Origin: Nanopusillaceae archaeon
Lineage (GTDB): Archaea > Nanobdellota > Nanobdellia > Nanobdellales > Nanobdellaceae
DNA: 10,054 nt
Reading direction: 5' to 3'
Assembly (NCBI GenBank): GCA_038833255.1
Contig: JAWBIX010000013.1
Coordinates: 1 to 10,054, forward strand
The translations under genes and the position numbers were made by a program. This document shows, in pieces, positions 84-10,054 of the stretch. The notes beneath the pieces are model-generated. The model did no database searches and was not told the origin of the DNA. It was given only the letters and a program-made list of their open reading frames with translations. Each line of letters starts with the position of its first letter. Within the stretch, counting starts at the first letter, position 1.

Positions 84-599
84 TCATTCTGAAACAATTT
101 CTAAAATTTTGCCTATTTTTCTTATAATAATTCTACAATTTCCAAAACAAAGAAAGTCGCAATAGTCGCTTTGAATAATATAGCTGTATTTATCTTCATA
201 ACATCCCTCAAAAGATCTTGGAGTTTTTTTAAAAACTTTATAATATACGTTTGTATTGTTAGAATAGAAGTAATAAGAATTATCATATTTTATTAAATCT
301 CCAATATAATCAATGTTTATAAAAATTGGAAAACATTTGGAAGTCTTATAAAAAATTGAATAATTATATTTACAAATTCCATTTAATTCTAAATTTAAAG
401 ATTTAGAAAAATTATAAAAATTTAAAGCATTTTCTAAATAAAAATCTAAGATTCTCATACTAATATCTTCTTTTTTTTCTGTAAAAATAATAGAAAGAGA
501 TATTTTGCTAGTTTCATAATAATTGTAAATAAAATATATTATTGATAGTGAAATTAAGAATAATAATAAATATTCTAAATATAAACTAACACTTTTCAT
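84..599 (-). CDS. Hypothetical small membrane-anchored protein with a Cys-containing ectodomain; no family recognised
   Basis: 171-aa ORF with ATG start and TGA stop. It lies 33 nt downstream of the RNase J-like gene on the same strand. The N-terminus is MK plus a ~22-residue hydrophobic helix (SVSLYLEYLLLFLISLSIIYFIY). A Y/N/K-rich region follows with 6 Cys (GIC, SKC, EGC, DYC, FLC, GNC), four of them in the last ~35 residues. I cannot assign any known family motif. Confidence 0.5.
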   Translation of the reverse strand: MKSVSLYLEYLLLFLISLSIIYFIYNYYETSKISLSIIFTEKKEDISMRILDFYLENALNFYNFSKSLNLELNGICKYNYSIFYKTSKCFPIFINIDYIGDLIKYDNSYYFYSNNTNVYYKVFKKTPRSFEGCYEDKYSYIIQSDYCDFLCFGNCRIIIRKIGKILEIVSE

Positions 600-3706: not shown

Positions 3707-5314
3707 ATGAATAAAAAAATAGCGTTCGTATGTATGGAATTTTCTATTGAAAAACTTCCAACATATGCTGGAGGGCTAGGAATACTTGCAGGAGATCTAC
3801 TTTATACAGCAAATGATTTGGGTATACCATTTTATGGTGTTACTTTTATAAGTAGAAAAGGATACGTTAAGTATAAAATAAAAGATAGAGATCTGATCAT
3901 AGAGACTGAGGATTATGATCCTATAGAATATTTTTCAAAAATCGATGAAACCTATTCAATAAAATTAAAAAATTTAGAAATAAAATTTGACGTCTGGAAA
4001 TATTCTTTGCCAAATGCTAAACTTTATTTAATAGATACAAACAGACCAGATAATCCAGATTGGATAAGAGAATTAACAGATAGGCTATACTTTGAAAAAA
4101 ATGAGGAAGAAAAATTGCTTAAAGATATTTTATTAGGATTGGGAACATTGGAAATATTTGATAAGCAAGGAATAGAAATTGATAAATATCATTTGAATGA
4201 ATCTCATGGTGGATTTTTAGCAATAGAATTATTTAAAAGGTATAATAGTATTGAAGATGTTCGAAAAAAAGTTGTTTTTACGACCCACTCTATTGTTGCT
4301 GGACATGATGAATTTTCTTATGATTTAGTAGAAAAATATTATAATATTCCAGATGAAATAAGAAAAATTTCTCCAAATAAATTATCTTTAACAAAAGTTT
4401 TATTTGAATTATCTGGAAAAAATAATGCGGTATCATGGAAACATAGAGAAGTTACTAAAAAATTATTTGATGTAGATTTAGATTATATTACAAATGGTGT
4501 TTATCATTTTAGGTGGATAAACAGAAAAATGGCAAATTTATACGATATATATTTACCAGGATGGAAAAAAGAACCGGCAAAATTAGCTTATGCGGATTAT
4601 ATTCCTGATTCAGAGTTTTATAGAGTTAGAAGTATACTTAAAGAAGAATTGATAAACTTCATAAACACAGAATCTTATCAAAATAAATCTTTTTCTCATG
4701 ATAGAATATTAATTTCTGTTAGAAGAAGATTAGTAGAATATAAGAGATTTCACATGCCTTTGTGGAGATTAGAATTATTTGAAGAATTGAATAAAAAATA
4801 TAAAATACAATTTTTAATATCTGGAGCATTTCATCCTGCAGATACCTACGTTCAAAATACAATAAAATGGATTATTGATATTATGTCTACTTTAAATACA
4901 CCCATAGCTTTAATACTTAAAAGAGGAATAGAATTAGAAAAGTATATTATTTCTGGAACAGACATATTTTTGCATATTCCTAGACCACCATTAGAAGCAT
5001 CTGGAACTTCATGGATGAGAGCAGCAATTAATGGAGTTCCAGTTTTAGCTTCTAGAGATGGTAGTGTAATAGAAGGAATTATTGATGGATACAATGGTTG
5101 GTTATTTGGAAAAAATAGAATTTATTTAGATGAACCATATAATGAAGATGAAGATGTTTTAGATTTTTATAGAAAACTGGAAGAAGCTTTTAATTTGTAC
5201 AGATATGAACATAGAGAGTATTTAAGAATATGTAAAAATGCTATAAAAACTATTGGACCAATATTTAATACTTATAGAGTTTTAAGAGAATATATTAGAA
5301 GAATATACGAATGA
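3707..5314 (+). CDS. GT35 alpha-glucan (glycogen/maltodextrin) phosphorylase-family protein, short archaeal type, with atypical active-site residues
   Basis: 535-aa ORF with ATG start and TGA stop. Family motifs are CMEFSIEKLPTYAGGLGILAGD (cf. sMEf..e.lpiYsGGLGvLAGD), HLNESHGGF (cf. hlNEGHaaf), FTTHSIVAGHDEF (cf. FTTHTPvpAGhd.F), ITNGVYHFRW, RRRLVEYKR and PPLEASGTSWMRAAINGV (cf. PlEASGTsgMKaamNG). The lysine of the EASGT..MK motif is Arg here (see findings). Confidence 0.75.
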   Translation: MNKKIAFVCMEFSIEKLPTYAGGLGILAGDLLYTANDLGIPFYGVTFISRKGYVKYKIKDRDLIIETEDYDPIEYFSKIDETYSIKLKNLEIKFDVWKYSLPNAKLYLIDTNRPDNPDWIRELTDRLYFEKNEEEKLLKDILLGLGTLEIFDKQGIEIDKYHLNESHGGFLAIELFKRYNSIEDVRKKVVFTTHSIVAGHDEFSYDLVEKYYNIPDEIRKISPNKLSLTKVLFELSGKNNAVSWKHREVTKKLFDVDLDYITNGVYHFRWINRKMANLYDIYLPGWKKEPAKLAYADYIPDSEFYRVRSILKEELINFINTESYQNKSFSHDRILISVRRRLVEYKRFHMPLWRLELFEELNKKYKIQFLISGAFHPADTYVQNTIKWIIDIMSTLNTPIALILKRGIELEKYIISGTDIFLHIPRPPLEASGTSWMRAAINGVPVLASRDGSVIEGIIDGYNGWLFGKNRIYLDEPYNEDEDVLDFYRKLEEAFNLYRYEHREYLRICKNAIKTIGPIFNTYRVLREYIRRIYE

Positions 5315-5359
5315 AGAAGGACGAAAACTCTGAAAAGTGATGATGGACCAAAACGCAGA
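5311..5359 (+). ncRNA. C/D box sRNA, unit 1 (2'-O-methylation guide)
   Basis: The layout is C = ATGAAGA (5311-5317), 12-nt guide AGGACGAAAACT, D' = CTGA (5330-5333), linker AAA, C' = GTGATGA (5337-5343), 12-nt guide TGGACCAAAACG, D = CAGA (5356-5359). The canonical archaeal spacing is met exactly (12-nt guides, 3-nt D'-C' linker). The region is locally G+C-rich in an AT-rich background. The C box overlaps the TGA stop codon (5312-5314) of the upstream gene. Confidence 0.65.
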
Positions 5360-5407
5360 TGATGAATTTGCCGAGTTCAGATCGATGAAGAATTCTACCC
5401 ATGCTGA
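5359..5407 (+). ncRNA. C/D box sRNA, unit 2 (2'-O-methylation guide)
   Basis: The layout is C = ATGATGA (5359-5365, perfect RUGAUGA), 12-nt guide ATTTGCCGAGTT, D' = CAGA (5378-5381), linker TCG, C' = ATGAAGA (5385-5391), 12-nt guide ATTCTACCCATG, D = CTGA (5404-5407). The guide upstream of D' is complementary to a conserved LSU rRNA stretch that I recognise from memory (see findings). No TCATCA is present in this region, so the minus strand cannot encode the boxes. Confidence 0.7.
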
Positions 5408-5409
5408 AA

Positions 5410-6795
5410 CTAAATTTTTTCTTCTGTGTTAGATAGAATTACAAGTGGTTCTGGATTTACATATTTTCTAAACCATCCAACAAAAATTATAGAAGGAACA
5501 TAATCTCTTAATGTACAAGATCCATCAAATGGCCATGTCCTTAGGCTGTCTGAAAAATATGTGCACATTGTGTTAGAAATGTTTACAAGTTTTCTATACA
5601 TTCCTCCTCCAGAAACCCATGAATTTGTATCCCTAGATAAATCCAATAAAAGATTTAAAGAGTGATTTGTCCAAATTATTGGTGGATTTAAACTTAAATT
5701 AACAATTGTTCCGGCTGTTGGTCTCCCCAAATTAACAGGTCCAAAAACTAAAATCCATCCAGTAGTTGTAAAAGTGTTTGTAAGTTGAGTTCTAGTAGTT
5801 AATTGATATCTTACTCTGTAATTATCTAAATCTCTTCCTGGTTGTTGAACTACGTAAATTCTTAACATAGTTATGTTTACAGGAACTAGATCACCAAAAT
5901 CAGAAGGTCTAATTAATATTTCATTTCTTGCATCATGGTAGTATGTGTTGAAAGTATCTTCTGGATTAGATGATCCAAAGCCCCATGTTGTATTAGGAAC
6001 GTTTGGAAATATTTCTCTTTCAGTCCAAATAAATACTCTAGAAATATCACTTAAACTTGTAGCATCAGGATTTCCATAATATAAGTAAATTGTTTTATTT
6101 GAAAATGCAGTTAAATTAACTCTCACCCAAATTCTTGTATTATTGGTATTGCATCCACTTTCTATCCAATAGTTTAATAAAGTTACTCCATCAGAATCCG
6201 TGAATCTTATATCACCACAATCTGATCTCATTTTTCCTTGAGAAATCAAAGTTCGCGTATCCAATATAATTAAAACTTGATAATCTATCAAATTTTGAAC
6301 AGATCTTTCTAAAATATATATTGGAGTTCTAAAATTCCATGGTTCTAACCATGGTCTTTCTAATACTTCAGAAAAAAATATTGCTTTTTCAAATTTTTTT
6401 CCATTACAACTTATAATCTCAATTTTATTCCAACCATTTTTAATATTATCTAGTCTTATTCTTGCAATTTCAGATGGATTTAATAAATCGTCTTTTAGAA
6501 TTTCTTCTATTTCGTATGAAAAATTTATTAAATTACCATTTACATAAACTTTAAAACAACTTAAATCTAAAGAAAGTTTTCCAATATTTTTTATTTTTAT
6601 TTCTGGTAAACTTATTTTATCATCTAAAATTTCAATTATTTCAAATGTAGATTTTTCATATTTTTGTATGTTTTTTAAAATGATATTTGCCAGATTGTTT
6701 ATATTGTAATTTAAATAAAATAAAAAAATAGAAATTGCTATTAAAAAGAATAAAAAACTAAAAGCAGTTCCAATAATAATTGAATTTGTTTTCAT
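5410..6795 (-). CDS. Membrane-anchored/pilin-like surface protein: N-terminal ArlF/ArlG(FlaF/FlaG)-like beta domain fused to a DUF2341 domain and a further beta-rich C-terminal domain
   Basis: 461-aa ORF. Its ATG overlaps the TGA of the upstream gene (ATGA at 6795..6792), and it ends in TAG. The N-terminus is MKTN plus the hydrophobic helix SIIIGTAFSFLFFLIAISIFLFYL. Residues ~50-140 are paralogous to the upstream 152-aa protein. Residues ~148-250 match the DUF2341 signature very well: PWNFRTPIYI...LIDYQVLIILD...GDIRFTDSDGVTLLNYWIE...TRIWVRVNL...KTIYLYYGNPDATS. The C-terminus ends WFRKYVNPEP. Confidence 0.7.
   Translation of the reverse strand: MKTNSIIIGTAFSFLFFLIAISIFLFYLNYNINNLANIILKNIQKYEKSTFEIIEILDDKISLPEIKIKNIGKLSLDLSCFKVYVNGNLINFSYEIEEILKDDLLNPSEIARIRLDNIKNGWNKIEIISCNGKKFEKAIFFSEVLERPWLEPWNFRTPIYILERSVQNLIDYQVLIILDTRTLISQGKMRSDCGDIRFTDSDGVTLLNYWIESGCNTNNTRIWVRVNLTAFSNKTIYLYYGNPDATSLSDISRVFIWTEREIFPNVPNTTWGFGSSNPEDTFNTYYHDARNEILIRPSDFGDLVPVNITMLRIYVVQQPGRDLDNYRVRYQLTTRTQLTNTFTTTGWILVFGPVNLGRPTAGTIVNLSLNPPIIWTNHSLNLLLDLSRDTNSWVSGGGMYRKLVNISNTMCTYFSDSLRTWPFDGSCTLRDYVPSIIFVGWFRKYVNPEPLVILSNTEEKI
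5415..5425 (+). terminator. Oligo-T tract downstream of the sRNA pair (candidate archaeal terminator)
   Basis: TTTTTTCTTCT begins 8 nt after the last D box. It lies inside the 3' end of the convergent minus-strand CDS. This is positional inference only. Confidence 0.3.
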
Positions 6796-7250
6796 GTTAA
6801 GCTACAAGTATTATTATAGATATAAACTATTTTTTCATCATAAGACCCAACATTTGAAACTACTTTTACAGAATATATTCCATCAGATAAATTAAAAACC
6901 GATATTTTTAATGTTTCATGTTTATGCCATGCAGAATCATTAAAAATCTTATATGCAAAAGATATGAATATTTCGCTATATCTACCATTAATAAAAAATT
7001 TTGTTAAGTTCGGATTTAGGATAGTGTTTCCTCTATTTGTTACATAAAATGATACAACTCCATTTTCATAAGAACAAGAATCAATGTCAATTACAGATTG
7101 TAATCTATCAGAAATTATTTTTTCTCTACTTATTATTGCTCCCTGTATTTCTGCTATATTTTTGAACAATCCAGAAGCAAGTAAATATACGGCAACTATA
7201 GTAACTATGAAAAGTAAGACATATGATATTACAGTTGCAATTCCTTTCAT
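6792..7250 (-). CDS. Archaeal type IV pilin-like / ArlF-ArlG (FlaF/FlaG)-like protein with a putative class III signal peptide
   Basis: 152-aa ORF with ATG start and TGA stop. The N-terminus MKG|IATVISYVLLFIVTIVAVYLLASG resembles the archaeal pilin N-terminal domain consensus: a basic residue, then Gly, then a small residue, then ~20 hydrophobic residues. The following beta-rich domain carries the pattern VTNRGNTILNPNLTKFFINGRY, typical of FlaF/FlaG-like and pilin-like proteins. It is translationally coupled to the downstream DUF2341 gene. Confidence 0.6.
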   Translation of the reverse strand: MKGIATVISYVLLFIVTIVAVYLLASGLFKNIAEIQGAIISREKIISDRLQSVIDIDSCSYENGVVSFYVTNRGNTILNPNLTKFFINGRYSEIFISFAYKIFNDSAWHKHETLKISVFNLSDGIYSVKVVSNVGSYDEKIVYIYNNTCSLT

Positions 7251-7470: not shown

Positions 7471-8058
7471 TTAAATTAAAAAAGAAATAAGATGTCTTAA
7501 AACATTATCTAGATCTTTATGATATTTTTTATAATACTTTATATACATTATTGTTTTTTTGTCCAATTCTTTTGGTAAAAAAGATTTTATTTTATCATAG
7601 TTCCCTTCTATAATAGCTTTTCTTATGTAGCTAGAGTTTAAAATATTGGTTTTTTTCTCATAATAAACATTTATATGCAATGAATATAATCTTGCTATTA
7701 GAGAAACTATTTTGTATGCTAGAAATCTATCTAAATCTCTAGTATAAATCAAAAATTCTTTCTCTCCAGTAGATTTTAAAATATTCAAAAATTTTATGAG
7801 TAGTTTTTTATCTAAGATATTTATAGGCAAAATATAATATTTTCTATGATCTATATAATTTTCTAGAATAGAAGAGATGTATTTATACCTATAGTTAATT
7901 GGAATTGGATTTTTTGGTGATAAAATTTCTTTTTCATTTTTTTGAAGATATGTGGGTATTACTAGAACTAAATCAGTTTTATTAGATAATTTTAGTATTG
8001 TCTCTAAATGTTGTTTATGGAATGGCTGAAACTTCCCGATGAAGATACCTACTACCAT
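7471..8058 (-). CDS. nadM: Nicotinamide-nucleotide adenylyltransferase, archaeal type (cytidylyltransferase-fold)
   Basis: 195-aa ORF with ATG start and TAA stop. The N-terminus VGIFIGKFQPFHKQHLETI matches the archaeal NMNAT signature G(R/K)xQPFHxGH, except for G->Q. Further matches to the M. jannaschii-type enzyme are NPIPINYRY (cf. DPFTAGER), YYILPI (cf. YYIIPV) and NSSYIRKAIIEGNYDKIKSFLPKEL (cf. [23 protein letters not shown]). Confidence 0.72.
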   Translation of the reverse strand: MVVGIFIGKFQPFHKQHLETILKLSNKTDLVLVIPTYLQKNEKEILSPKNPIPINYRYKYISSILENYIDHRKYYILPINILDKKLLIKFLNILKSTGEKEFLIYTRDLDRFLAYKIVSLIARLYSLHINVYYEKKTNILNSSYIRKAIIEGNYDKIKSFLPKELDKKTIMYIKYYKKYHKDLDNVLRHLISFLI

Positions 8059-8078
8059 CTCTTCTAAGTAATTACAAA

Positions 8079-8090
8079 TTTTATATATAT
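8079..8090. promoter_or_regulatory. Shared A/T-alternating TATA element of a divergent promoter (nadM leftward, HerA-like ATPase rightward)
   Basis: TTTTATATATAT lies in a 56-bp spacer. Its centre is ~27 bp from the minus-strand ATG (8058) and ~30 bp from the plus-strand ATG (8115). There is no SD-like tract on either side. This is inferred from spacing only. Confidence 0.4.
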
Positions 8091-8114
8091 TGTTAAAGAT
8101 GTTTAAAATATTTT

Positions 8115-9425
8115 ATGGATATTATAATAGGAAGAACTCAGGATGAAATTGAAAAATATGGTAAAGAAGGGACAATTTTTATCGGAAAAGAATATATAAA
8201 GATGGAAAATGCTCTTTCTCTTGCAAATGAAGTTTATTTAGATGTCAATTTTCCACATATAATTTTAATTGTTGGAAAGAGAGGGCAAGGAAAATCTTAT
8301 ACATTATCTTCAATTATAGAAGGAATATCTCTGTTAGACTATTCATATAGAAAAAATATAGTCAATTTAGTTTTTGATACAATGGGAATATTTTGGACAA
8401 TGAAATTTCCGAACTATAGGGAAGCAGAATTATTAGAAAGATGGAATATGAAACCAAAAGCATTAGATAATGCAAAAATATATGTACCTGAAGGAATTTA
8501 TGAAAAATACGAGGATTTAAAAATCCCTGTTGATGATACCTTTACTATTAATCCGCATGATTTATCAGAAATCGATTGGACATTGGTTTTTAATTTAAAT
8601 CCAATATCATTGAAAGCAGCATATTTGCAAAGAATAATTAGAGAGCTTAAAAGAAGAAATGAGGACTATTCTATAGAAAACATAATCAATTATATTGAGA
8701 AAAAAAGTTTAGATCCAAAAATAAAAGAAATTTTGATAAATTATTTTGAAAATGCAAATTCCTGGGGATTGTTCTCGGAAAAAGCTACACAATTGAAGAA
8801 AATTTTAACTCCTGGAGATGTAATAATATTAGATATTTCTTTATATACTACAATACTGGGTGGATGGTCTGTTAAAAATTTAGTAATTGGATTAATCTCT
8901 AAAAAAATATTTTATGAAAGATTACTTTGGAGAAAAAAAGAAGAATTAGAAGAAGCATACTTGGGATTTGAAATTAGAGATAGAGAAATGCCTCTCATTT
9001 GGATATATATAGATGAAGCACATGAAGCCATTCCAAAAGATAGTATTACTCCTGCTACAGAACCATTGTTACAGATAATAAGAGAGGGCAGACAACCAGG
9101 AATATCGTTAGTTTTGGCAACGCAACAACCAGGAAAATTATTAATCGATGCAATTTCTCAGTCTGATATAGTTATATCCCATAGAGTTACTGCAAAAAGC
9201 GATATAGATGCTCTTAATGAAGTTATGAAAAATTTTACAGCTCAGGATATTGAAATATATATGAATGAAAATCTTCCAAAAAGAAAAGGGGCAGCAATAG
9301 TATTAGATGATAAATCAGAAAGAATATATCCAGTTCAAATAAAACCAAGATTTTCTTGGCATGGAGGTCAAGATGCTCAGTTAATTAGAAAAAGAATATG
9401 GTTAGAGGAATATTCAAAAAAATAG
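8115..9425 (+). CDS. HerA/FtsK-superfamily P-loop ATPase (DUF87 / COG0433-like), short form without a recognisable HAS-barrel
   Basis: 436-aa ORF with ATG start and TAG stop. Walker A is VGKRGQGKSYT (G54-S61, nt 8274-8297), followed by VFDTMG (cf. ifDpHGEY). Walker B is LIWIYIDEAHEAIP (D300-E301 at nt 9012-9017). The C-terminal HerA-type block is IIREGRQPGISLVLATQQPGKLLIDAISQSDIVISHRVTAKSDIDAL (cf. REGRKfGvsL.l.tQrP..l...vlsQc.t.i..rl....D). Confidence 0.8.
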   Translation: MDIIIGRTQDEIEKYGKEGTIFIGKEYIKMENALSLANEVYLDVNFPHIILIVGKRGQGKSYTLSSIIEGISLLDYSYRKNIVNLVFDTMGIFWTMKFPNYREAELLERWNMKPKALDNAKIYVPEGIYEKYEDLKIPVDDTFTINPHDLSEIDWTLVFNLNPISLKAAYLQRIIRELKRRNEDYSIENIINYIEKKSLDPKIKEILINYFENANSWGLFSEKATQLKKILTPGDVIILDISLYTTILGGWSVKNLVIGLISKKIFYERLLWRKKEELEEAYLGFEIRDREMPLIWIYIDEAHEAIPKDSITPATEPLLQIIREGRQPGISLVLATQQPGKLLIDAISQSDIVISHRVTAKSDIDALNEVMKNFTAQDIEIYMNENLPKRKGAAIVLDDKSERIYPVQIKPRFSWHGGQDAQLIRKRIWLEEYSKK

Positions 9426-10054
9426 AAGGAATAATATCTCTAGTTGTATTTATTTTATTTTTGATTTTTTATTTTAACGTTTATGATATTACGATATTTA
9501 ATGATTCTAATAATGAAATTTACAGAAAAATACAAACCATAGAAGAAATTTATAATAAGCTAAAAAAAGAAGGATATATTGTTAGTTTTAGAGTTTATAT
9601 ATCAAAATATTCTAAAGAAATTTTGTGTAATTTAAATAACGAAGAATTAAGAAAAGAACTTTGTTACAATCATCCTTTTTTTATTCCAATAAATCTTAGT
9701 TTTTTATTAAAAAATGATGGAATATTAAGTAATACAAATAATACTCTTTTTAAAAAAGACCTTGGAGGATTTGTATATCTAAATTTATCTTCTTTTGAAT
9801 GTGAAGAAGAAGAGTATATTTTAATTGAAGTAAAAGGTCCAATAAATTCTCCAAAAATTGTATTTGTTACAACTCCAACTATTTACTATTGGTTAAATAG
9901 TGGTTTTAATGTAACAGTAGAATCTAATGTAGAGGCAGAATTTAGTTATTGTTATTTATCGGAAAATGGAACATGTTTAGAATCTAATACTGGAAAATCT
10001 TATGGTATAATAATAAAAATAGATTATCTTACATCAGAAAAAGCAATTTTTAAT
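9398..10054 (+). CDS. Hypothetical membrane-anchored protein (partial, continues beyond the window); candidate partner of the HerA-like ATPase
   Basis: This ORF is not in the supplied track because it has no stop in the window. I translated it by hand: ATG at 9398, preceded by an in-frame TAG at 9386-9388, then 219 open codons to the window end. The sequence begins MVRGIFKKIEGIISLVVFILFLIFYFNVYDITIFNDSNNEIYRK... It has one N-terminal hydrophobic helix followed by a beta-rich N/Y/E-rich region with 5 Cys. It overlaps the ATPase 3' end by 28 nt in a different frame. An open frame this long is unlikely by chance in DNA this AT-rich. Confidence 0.6.
   Translation, partial: MVRGIFKKIEGIISLVVFILFLIFYFNVYDITIFNDSNNEIYRKIQTIEEIYNKLKKEGYIVSFRVYISKYSKEILCNLNNEELRKELCYNHPFFIPINLSFLLKNDGILSNTNNTLFKKDLGGFVYLNLSSFECEEEEYILIEVKGPINSPKIVFVTTPTIYYWLNSGFNVTVESNVEAEFSYCYLSENGTCLESNTGKSYGIIIKIDYLTSEKAIFN

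Follow-up and report, generated by a model that had tools for sequence, protein, structure and literature searches.

The closest described relatives of the gene considered here are the HerA ATPases. To our knowledge, every characterised member of the HerA clade acts on DNA. In archaea, HerA works with NurA in DNA end resection, and the structures of HerA-NurA complexes identify the HAS barrel of HerA as the domain on which NurA docks. Bacterial HerAs occur in defence systems–for example, in the SIR2-HerA and DUF4297-HerA pairs, and as mad8 of the MADS system. In Thermus thermophilus the HerA-family ATPase TdtA, located at the cytoplasmic membrane, has a DNA donor role in DNA transfer by transjugation (PMC5365140). 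Here we describe a locus at the end of contig JAWBIX010000013.1 of a Nanopusillaceae archaeon, a tiny hot-spring symbiont (assembly GCA_038833255.1), where the gene for a short HerA-type ATPase of 436 amino acids (aa) is overlapped at its 3' end by the gene for a putative surface protein of 534 aa. The window that we analyzed, 10,054 nucleotides (nt) long, is the entire contig (C13 in our numbering) of a 432-kb genome assembled in 52 contigs, 77% complete, with a GC content of about 25%. The original prediction, made from this window, saw the two genes as a candidate membrane-tethered translocase module. We consider it reasonably probable that they are two modules lying side by side: a HerA paralogue found throughout the phylum, and a lineage-specific cassette of pilin-like surface proteins.

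A short HerA-clade ATPase conserved across the Nanoarchaeota

The ATPase gene (8115..9425, + strand), which we call the NEQ512/MJ1_0636 family after its orthologs in N. equitans and Nanobdella aerobiophila, encodes the HerA/DUF87 protein that had been predicted, with all of the motifs quoted for it: Walker A GKRGQGKS (residues 54–61), Walker B IYIDEAHE, REGRQPGISLVLATQQP and SQSDIVISHR. The quoted motifs include the arginine-rich REGRQPG. The match to Pfam DUF87, the central domain of HerA, has an E-value of 2.7e-13 (51 bits, against a cut-off of 23.2 bits). The prediction that the protein lacks a HAS barrel, with only about 50 residues before the P-loop, was also right: the short ATPase has no Pfam match to the HAS barrel (PF09378), and its P-loop starts at residue 54, after 53 residues, compared to residue 160 in canonical nanoarchaeal HerAs. 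In the AlphaFold monomer model (predicted local distance difference test score, pLDDT, 87.5) what precedes the core is no more than a short strand, a helix and a beta hairpin (three strands in total), and the protein consists of this small N-terminal element, a RecA-like core and a helical insert. The C-terminal tail is not conserved, and residues 418–436 have pLDDT below 50. The protein has one N-x-S/T sequon and no cysteine, and we found no transmembrane or amphipathic anchor in it.

By searching PDB sequences with a profile of the family, we found strong matches only to HerA-type proteins (8xau, E = 1.7e-14; 8wiv; 9x1l; and Sulfolobus HerA 4d2i, 2e-9). In the same search FtsK had an E-value of 0.07, a VirD4-type coupling protein had 0.2, and VirB4 was not matched. 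When the ATPase model was compared to PDB structures with Foldseek, all of the top 50 matches were HerA-family or HerA-like ATPases (TM-score approximately 0.6), led by the Thermococcus HerA-NurA complex 9x1m (8e-20) and Sulfolobus HerA 4d2i (6.5e-18), and including defence HerAs, Deinococcus HerA and TdpA. The best PADLOC model was mad8, a short HerA-like ATPase of 314 positions (1.3e-20), and many other defence-HerA models were matched too. Because mad8 aligns across nearly the whole protein, there is a precedent for a HerA core that has no HAS barrel. On the strength of these PDB profile, Foldseek and PADLOC matches, the ATPase is a member of the HerA clade of the FtsK-HerA superfamily, and the VirB4/FtsK-like kinship first suggested for it is not supported: both sequence and fold place it with HerA and not with VirB4, VirD4 or FtsK. 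By homology, members of the family would form a ring-shaped translocase driven by NTP. The closest named relative, with 77% identity, is from Candidatus Nanoclepta minutus NZ13-N.

The short ATPase belongs to the core gene set of the phylum Nanoarchaeota, in which it is nearly universal and mostly present as one copy. It was detected in 298 of the 301 genomes that we sampled (297 of 300 high-quality genomes) with E-values around 1e-200, across 222 of 225 genera and about 96 families, with additional copies in very few cases. A pattern scan of species-representative genomes located at least 586 ATPase loci. Comparison to other genera gives amino acid identities of 66–77% for the ATPase and 67–75% for ribosomal protein S19e, which puts the evolution of the ATPase at the slow pace of a ribosomal protein; the corresponding values are 35–38% for the 534-aa protein and 29–46% for the small proteins encoded after it. 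In about 95 other families the ATPase is retained at 45–50% identity. Nanoarchaeota have some of the smallest genomes of any cells, and a gene kept in 99% of them is probably indispensable. Identifying what it acts on would close one of the gaps in the minimal gene set known for these symbionts; chromosome handling, repair and envelope traffic are all candidate roles. In the literature, we found no paper that names NEQ512, MJ1_0636–0640 or this type of HerA paralogue, without a HAS barrel and independent of NurA.

Clues to the substrate come from more distant relatives. An exhaustive HMMER search returned 1404 cluster representatives with E ≤ 1e-3, 220 of them with E ≤ 1e-30. Many are long fusion proteins (600–1650 aa) that combine an entire ATPase (33–37% identity) with other domains; two such proteins are named in the source databases, one from Lokiarchaeota/Promethearchaeota and one from Diapherotrites. 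Among 50 long relatives, the ATPase is fused to DUF835 in eight, to a TrmB-type domain in four, and to MarR/ArsR/TFIIE-type winged-helix, SAP or FHA domains in one or two each, and none of the 50 has a transmembrane segment outside the core. One nanoarchaeal-type protein (P0161) contains an intein with a LAGLIDADG endonuclease just past the P-loop, and several other high-scoring matches are split in the same way at about residue 60. The DNA-binding fusions and the inteins, considered together with membership in the HerA clade and a conservation like that of ribosomal proteins, point to a housekeeping translocase that handles nucleic acid. From its family, fold, fusions and inteins, we take nucleic acid (double-stranded DNA) as the most likely substrate of the ATPase, whose ring would translocate it independently of NurA and of a HAS barrel. 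As a separate observation, DUF835, an archaeal domain of unknown function, lies C-terminal to the ATPase in the eight fusions (P0271, P0285, P0288 and P0305 among them), which may be a lead to the function of DUF835 itself.

The overlapping gene and the pilin-like cassette

The second open reading frame (ORF) begins at an ATG at position 9398, and the TAG stop codon of the ATPase gene is at 9423–9425, so the tail of one gene and the start of the other share 28 nt (9398..9425, + strand). Both the start and the length of the overlap agree with the original prediction, and the start is backed by the conservation in other genera of the N-terminus (MVRG..KEIEG) and the hydrophobic helix that follows it. 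A GGAGGT sequence at 9363–9368 was considered as a ribosome-binding site and rejected, being 30 nt upstream of the ATG and coding for an invariant WHGG motif. The window contains the first 219 codons of the gene (9398..10054, + strand), and the gene continues on contig C2 (from 27404 downwards, minus strand): the last 127 nt of C13 are identical to the first nucleotides of C2 in reverse complement. An independent assembly, GCA_038891875.1 (JAWAUN010000001.1), is collinear with the joined sequence, with 99.83% identity over 17.3 kb and no gap at the junction, and its downstream protein is identical to the one in our joined version. Because the join agrees with this assembly, the locus can be read past the edge of the window, and the full 534-aa ORF occupies 9398–11002 in joined coordinates. 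Exact 127-nt overlaps of this kind link ten pairs of contig ends in the assembly (for example, C13 to C2, and C2 to C21), by which several contigs could be chained.

The complete protein has the single N-terminal helix and the long cysteine-bearing ectodomain that its first 219 codons had suggested. The only hydrophobic helix, IISLVVFILFLIFYF, is near the N-terminus, and the protein has 15 N-x-S/T sequons and 10 cysteines. Its AlphaFold2 model is beta-rich and of poor quality (pLDDT 42.8), too poor for a fold search. If the protein is signal-anchored or pilin-like, at most 11 of its residues (MVRGIFKKIEG) would be in the cytoplasm, and fewer if the leader is cleaved, a stretch ill-suited to holding a hexameric motor at the membrane. 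The 5.8 billion clustered proteins that we searched include only 28 detectable homologs, and all of those with names are from Nanopusillaceae, Nanopusillus or Nanobsidianus. One further homolog is in a sister family, which we call f2 (the family of the present genome being f1).

Beyond this gene are genes for proteins of 109 aa and 148 aa, each overlapping the preceding gene by 4 nt, then a convergent gene for a 157-aa protein, and then the gene for S19e. We interpret the 534-aa ORF as the first of four genes in a cassette (products of 534, 109 and 148 aa, and the convergent one of 157 aa) that would code for fast-evolving, sequon-rich, cysteine-containing surface proteins with pilin-like N-termini. 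In Pfam and NCBIfam searches, none of the four proteins had a domain match above noise. The three small proteins have conserved cysteines and sequons, and their N-termini (MRG/WIVLFE, MKS/QYILIS and MKKS/ISLFIE, the slash marking the putative cleavage site) consist of a basic residue, a glycine or serine, and a long hydrophobic helix. Judged by eye, they look like archaeal class III (pilin-type) signal peptides. The N-terminus of the 534-aa protein, MVRG/IFKKIEGIISLVV.., fits the pattern less well. When the three small proteins were aligned by hhalign to each other and to ArlF/G-like proteins, only the N-terminal helix was aligned (probability ≤25%), and there were no pilin profile matches among the cassette proteins.

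Pilus machinery is encoded elsewhere in the genome. No T2SSE, T2SSF or A24 peptidase gene is present in the ATPase-cassette locus, and on other contigs we found five T2SSE-type ATPases above cut-off (on C29, C5, C18, C4 and C7), six matches to T2SSF (on C5, C32, C18 and C4) and one A24 prepilin peptidase (on C9). In a 2026 survey of archaeal type IV filaments, the ATPase and platform genes of Nanobdellati were together and the pilin genes were scattered (PMC13705601). An orphan pilin-like cassette fits this pattern. Most likely, a class III signal peptidase would cut the cassette proteins, and the conventional type IV filament ATPase and platform encoded on the other contigs would handle them. 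The cassette, which is fast-evolving and rich in glycosylation sequons, is a reasonable candidate for a role in host attachment. Our literature search found no paper linking a HerA-like ATPase to archaeal pilins.

Is the ATPase coupled to its neighbors?

Within family f1 the arrangement is stable. The ATPase, the big protein (the 534-aa protein or its homolog), a 106–109-aa protein, a 146–148-aa protein, a convergent 156–157-aa gene and S19e occur in the same order in Nanoclepta, in Nanopusillus-type genomes and in N. aerobiophila, where the ATPase and cassette genes are MJ1_0636–0640 and 735 of the 736 coding sequences in the genome are expressed (preprint 10.1101/2023.10.27.564410). The next 5 kb beyond S19e, coding for L37ae, ZPR1, SepF, prefoldin, GlnRS and Spt4, is equally conserved in this family, so gene order within it says little about function. 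In f2 (G001/L028) the order is an HtpX-like gene, the ATPase, a homologous 539-aa protein, an NTPase and then a pair of ArlG/ArlF-like genes. The 539-aa protein (BLASTP E-value 4e-7, profile 8e-21) overlaps the ATPase by 4 nt.

Outside these two families of one order the big protein is not found. We compared 79 other ATPase loci, which are mostly of Woesearchaeales type and include related genomes that are not independent samples, and 74 of them have unrelated neighbors around the ATPase. The downstream ORF is conserved and adjacent to the ATPase in these two families and absent from the others. This distribution does not support a membrane-tethered translocase module as a conserved unit: the ATPase is in almost every genome, whereas its partner has 28 homologs plus the one in f2, and the cytoplasmic stretch of that partner is very short. 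In a compact genome, the 28-nt overlap probably reflects co-transcription; by itself, it does not make the ATPase and the cassette one machine. Several observations weigh against the reading as two separate modules. The overlap of the big protein with the ATPase has been kept in both f1 and f2 although the genes that flank the pair differ. N. equitans, which has no homolog of the big protein, also has a shrunken and very divergent ATPase: NEQ512 (4758–5807, minus strand), flanked by other genes, is 349 aa long, lacks roughly residues 1–18 and 117–181, has 38–42% identity to its orthologs and sits on a branch of length 2.9. Lastly, in other orders, 43 of the 79 loci have envelope-type neighbors (HtpX, anchored parvulin, LemA or DsbA-like).

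These points leave a real but minor chance that the ATPase was recruited in the Nanoarchaeales (f1 and f2) and coupled to the cassette at the membrane, for protein export, assembly or retraction, or for transfer of DNA or protein across the contact with the host. An overlap of 28, 19, 16, 16 and 4 nt across the genera and f2, surviving rearrangement of the flanks, speaks for such a link, as does a degenerate ATPase in the species that lacks the big protein. The FtsK-HerA superfamily includes motors for secretion of protein and DNA, Thermus has the membrane-located, DNA-donating HerA-like TdtA (PMC5365140), and in one Nanoarchaeia metagenome-assembled genome an adhesin-like gene for a 1435-aa protein overlaps the start of the ATPase gene by 4 nt. 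On the other hand, about 95 other families have the ATPase without the big protein, the two proteins differ greatly in evolutionary rate, one offers the cytoplasm no more than 11 residues and the other has no anchor of its own, conventional type IV filament motors are encoded elsewhere, the entire region is syntenic in f1, and N. equitans is one genome that evolves fast in general. We regard as quite improbable a bolder form of this proposal, in which the NEQ512/MJ1_0636 family would serve throughout the phylum as a ring translocase whose function is new for HerA-type motors, wired in the Nanoarchaeales to the cassette as a HerA-driven apparatus for the surface or host contact. If true, such an apparatus might move DNA or protein across the junction between symbiont and host, or extract or assemble surface proteins. 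Support for a new translocation machine at this locus is weak. The adhesin-like gene mentioned above (locus L011, 2697–7004, + strand) shares its last 4 nt with the start of the ATPase gene, and its product has tandem-95, CshA-type and Big_9 repeats; it is a second, unrelated case of a surface gene overlapping this ATPase.

The wider neighborhoods single out no one partner. Across the 79 loci, the genes near the ATPase include an HtpX-type M48 peptidase in 30, DnaG in 22, Trm5/Taw2 in 16, the large subunit of RFC in 10, a membrane-anchored parvulin in 10, an SSB-like OB-fold protein in nine, LemA in seven and a DsbA-like protein in six. Replication-type neighbors are present at 40 of the loci. 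HtpX is no more than three genes from the ATPase in its 30 loci, and is often followed by LemA; where it directly adjoins the ATPase, the arrangement may be divergent, convergent or co-directional; at L028 in f2, the HtpX-like gene overlaps the ATPase co-directionally by 1 nt. This proximity may reflect either a gene order passed down from an ancestor or a link in function. If there is such a link, the ATPase might feed or extract proteins in envelope-protein quality control and biogenesis together with the HtpX-type protease, LemA, the anchored parvulin and the DsbA-like protein, with the cassette proteins as clients. We give this only a slight chance. The frequency of HtpX and other envelope-type genes, and the established fact that HtpX has no ATPase of its own, speak for it; but the replication-type neighbors are at 40 of the same 79 loci, the HtpX linkage may be no more than shared ancestry, HtpX in the present genome is unlinked (on contig C1), the winged-helix and SAP fusions indicate DNA, and DNA is what the characterised HerA-clade members act on. 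We also considered whether the ATPase could substitute for a missing membrane AAA protease serving HtpX; this idea is weakened by the presence of LonB, the usual membrane AAA protease of archaea, even though FtsH is absent.

A chance slighter still attaches to the possibility that the ATPase is simply this organism's repair HerA, acting with a NurA encoded on another contig in DNA end resection. It is the sole DUF87 protein above cut-off in the 77%-complete assembly, a NurA gene (295 aa; C6:6703–7590, minus strand) is present, and the N. aerobiophila ortholog is annotated 'DNA double-strand break repair helicase HerA'. However, the scores of the ATPase against the NCBIfam HerA equivalogs NF040819 and NF040937 are only 26.7 bits (cut-off 970) and 22.4 bits (cut-off 800), respectively, and the domain for docking NurA is the one it lacks. 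A second, separate HerA of 489–566 aa is present in genomes of the same genus (G019), family (G003, G006 and N. aerobiophila) and order (G001 and N. equitans), being 549–566 aa long in those of the same genus and family; the canonical HerAs compared across genus, family and order were 537–566 aa long. In G001, from f2, this canonical HerA has a Pfam HAS barrel (2e-8) and directly follows NurA (8e-16) in an overlapping operon, and the short ATPase is encoded on another contig. Clustering with the repair HerAs had been named beforehand as an outcome that would count against the original prediction, and it was not seen: in a maximum-likelihood tree of ATPase domains, three canonical nanoarchaeal HerAs are separated from the short family and its long relatives by a long branch with 100/99 support. 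The window has no NurA, Mre11/Rad50, SIR2 or DUF4297 gene, in line with what was first noted beside the ATPase, and NurA is likewise absent from all of the 79 related loci. The NurA gene on C6 is beside a metallo-beta-lactamase-fold gene and ThiI, without a HerA, and a Pfam match to NurA occurs in only 24 of the 80 high-quality genomes searched, compared to the ATPase in 298 of 301. We did not find a canonical HAS-barrel HerA in the present assembly, but it is probably just unassembled: a homolog of the 107-aa downstream neighbor of HerA in N. aerobiophila is located near the end of contig C49 (2325–2558, minus strand), pointing to a gap in the assembly. Judging from these comparisons of sequence, the ATPase is not the repair HerA and is a separate, uncharacterised HerA paralogue.

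We give next to no credence to a role in anti-virus defence like that of the HerA-effector and MADS (mad8-like) systems. In its favor, mad8 is the best PADLOC match over the full length, many defence-HerA models were hit and the best PDB sequence matches are defence HerAs. However, the ATPase gene belongs to the core of the whole phylum, in one copy and with the slow evolution of a ribosomal protein, and no locus that we examined has an adjacent effector (SIR2, DUF4297, nuclease or methylase). The readings as repair HerA, as a defence gene and as a partner of HtpX are all less likely than either two modules side by side or a link specific to the lineage.

Flanking genes and comparison with known systems

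Upstream of the ATPase gene, and divergent from it, is a nadM-like gene (7471–8058, minus strand). From our reading of the sequence and its ORFs, the spacer between the two genes is 56 bp long (8059..8114), and its sole obvious TATA-like element with alternating A and T is TTTTATATATAT, a candidate promoter. Further away there is a DUF2341 protein gene (5410–6795, minus strand), whose product shows homology to ArlF/ArlG-like proteins over its first 150 residues (probability 97.5% in hhalign), and its neighbor, coding for a 152-aa protein (6792–7250, minus strand), has NCBIfam matches to ArlF and ArlG, both under cut-off. Near the other end of the window, a 171-aa protein (84–599, minus strand) has an N-terminus, MKSVSLYLEYLLLF, that resembles that of the 157-aa cassette protein, MKKSISLFIEFLIY; the likeness is limited to about the first 22 residues.

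Of the known systems, the Ced and Ted import systems and the VirB4 and VirD4 conjugation ATPases share with this locus the FtsK-HerA/VirB4 superfamily and the logic of an ATPase next to a membrane protein. Unlike them, the ATPase has only a marginal match to a coupling protein (E = 0.2), none to VirB4, and no Pfam or NCBIfam match of TraG/CedB type. It had been suggested that further components of a translocation system might lie downstream, but extension into C2 revealed no Ced-, Ted- or conjugation-type gene; there is no polytopic CedA-like or VirB6-like protein or other type IV secretion system component there, only bitopic pilin-like proteins and then ribosomal genes. The archaeal type IV filament systems with minor pilins and adhesins (PMC13705601) resemble the locus in the pilin-like N-termini of the four downstream proteins and in having pilins apart from the machinery. 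The locus differs from them in that the adjacent ATPase is HerA-type and not of the T2SSE/ArlI type, and that the four proteins match no pilin or ArlF/G profile beyond the helix.

Bacterial defence HerAs (mad8 of MADS, and the SIR2-HerA and DUF4297-HerA proteins 8xau, 8wiv and 9c1m) provide the best sequence matches to the ATPase. Unlike them, it has no effector partner and no island-like distribution, and is a gene of housekeeping type throughout the phylum. With archaeal HerA (4d2i, 9x1m), it shares the RecA-like core, the HerA-type helical insert, the Walker A and B motifs and the arginine-rich REGR. It is unlike archaeal HerA in lacking a HAS barrel, in having its P-loop at residue 54 instead of about 160, in being located away from NurA and in a distribution that does not track that of NurA, and the two paralogues coexist in relatives. 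TdtA, which is 568 aa long, has HAS-barrel motifs and follows a NurA-family nuclease gene in an operon, whereas the short ATPase has none of these features; as a HerA-family ring ATPase, TdtA is nevertheless the best precedent for the idea of a membrane translocase.

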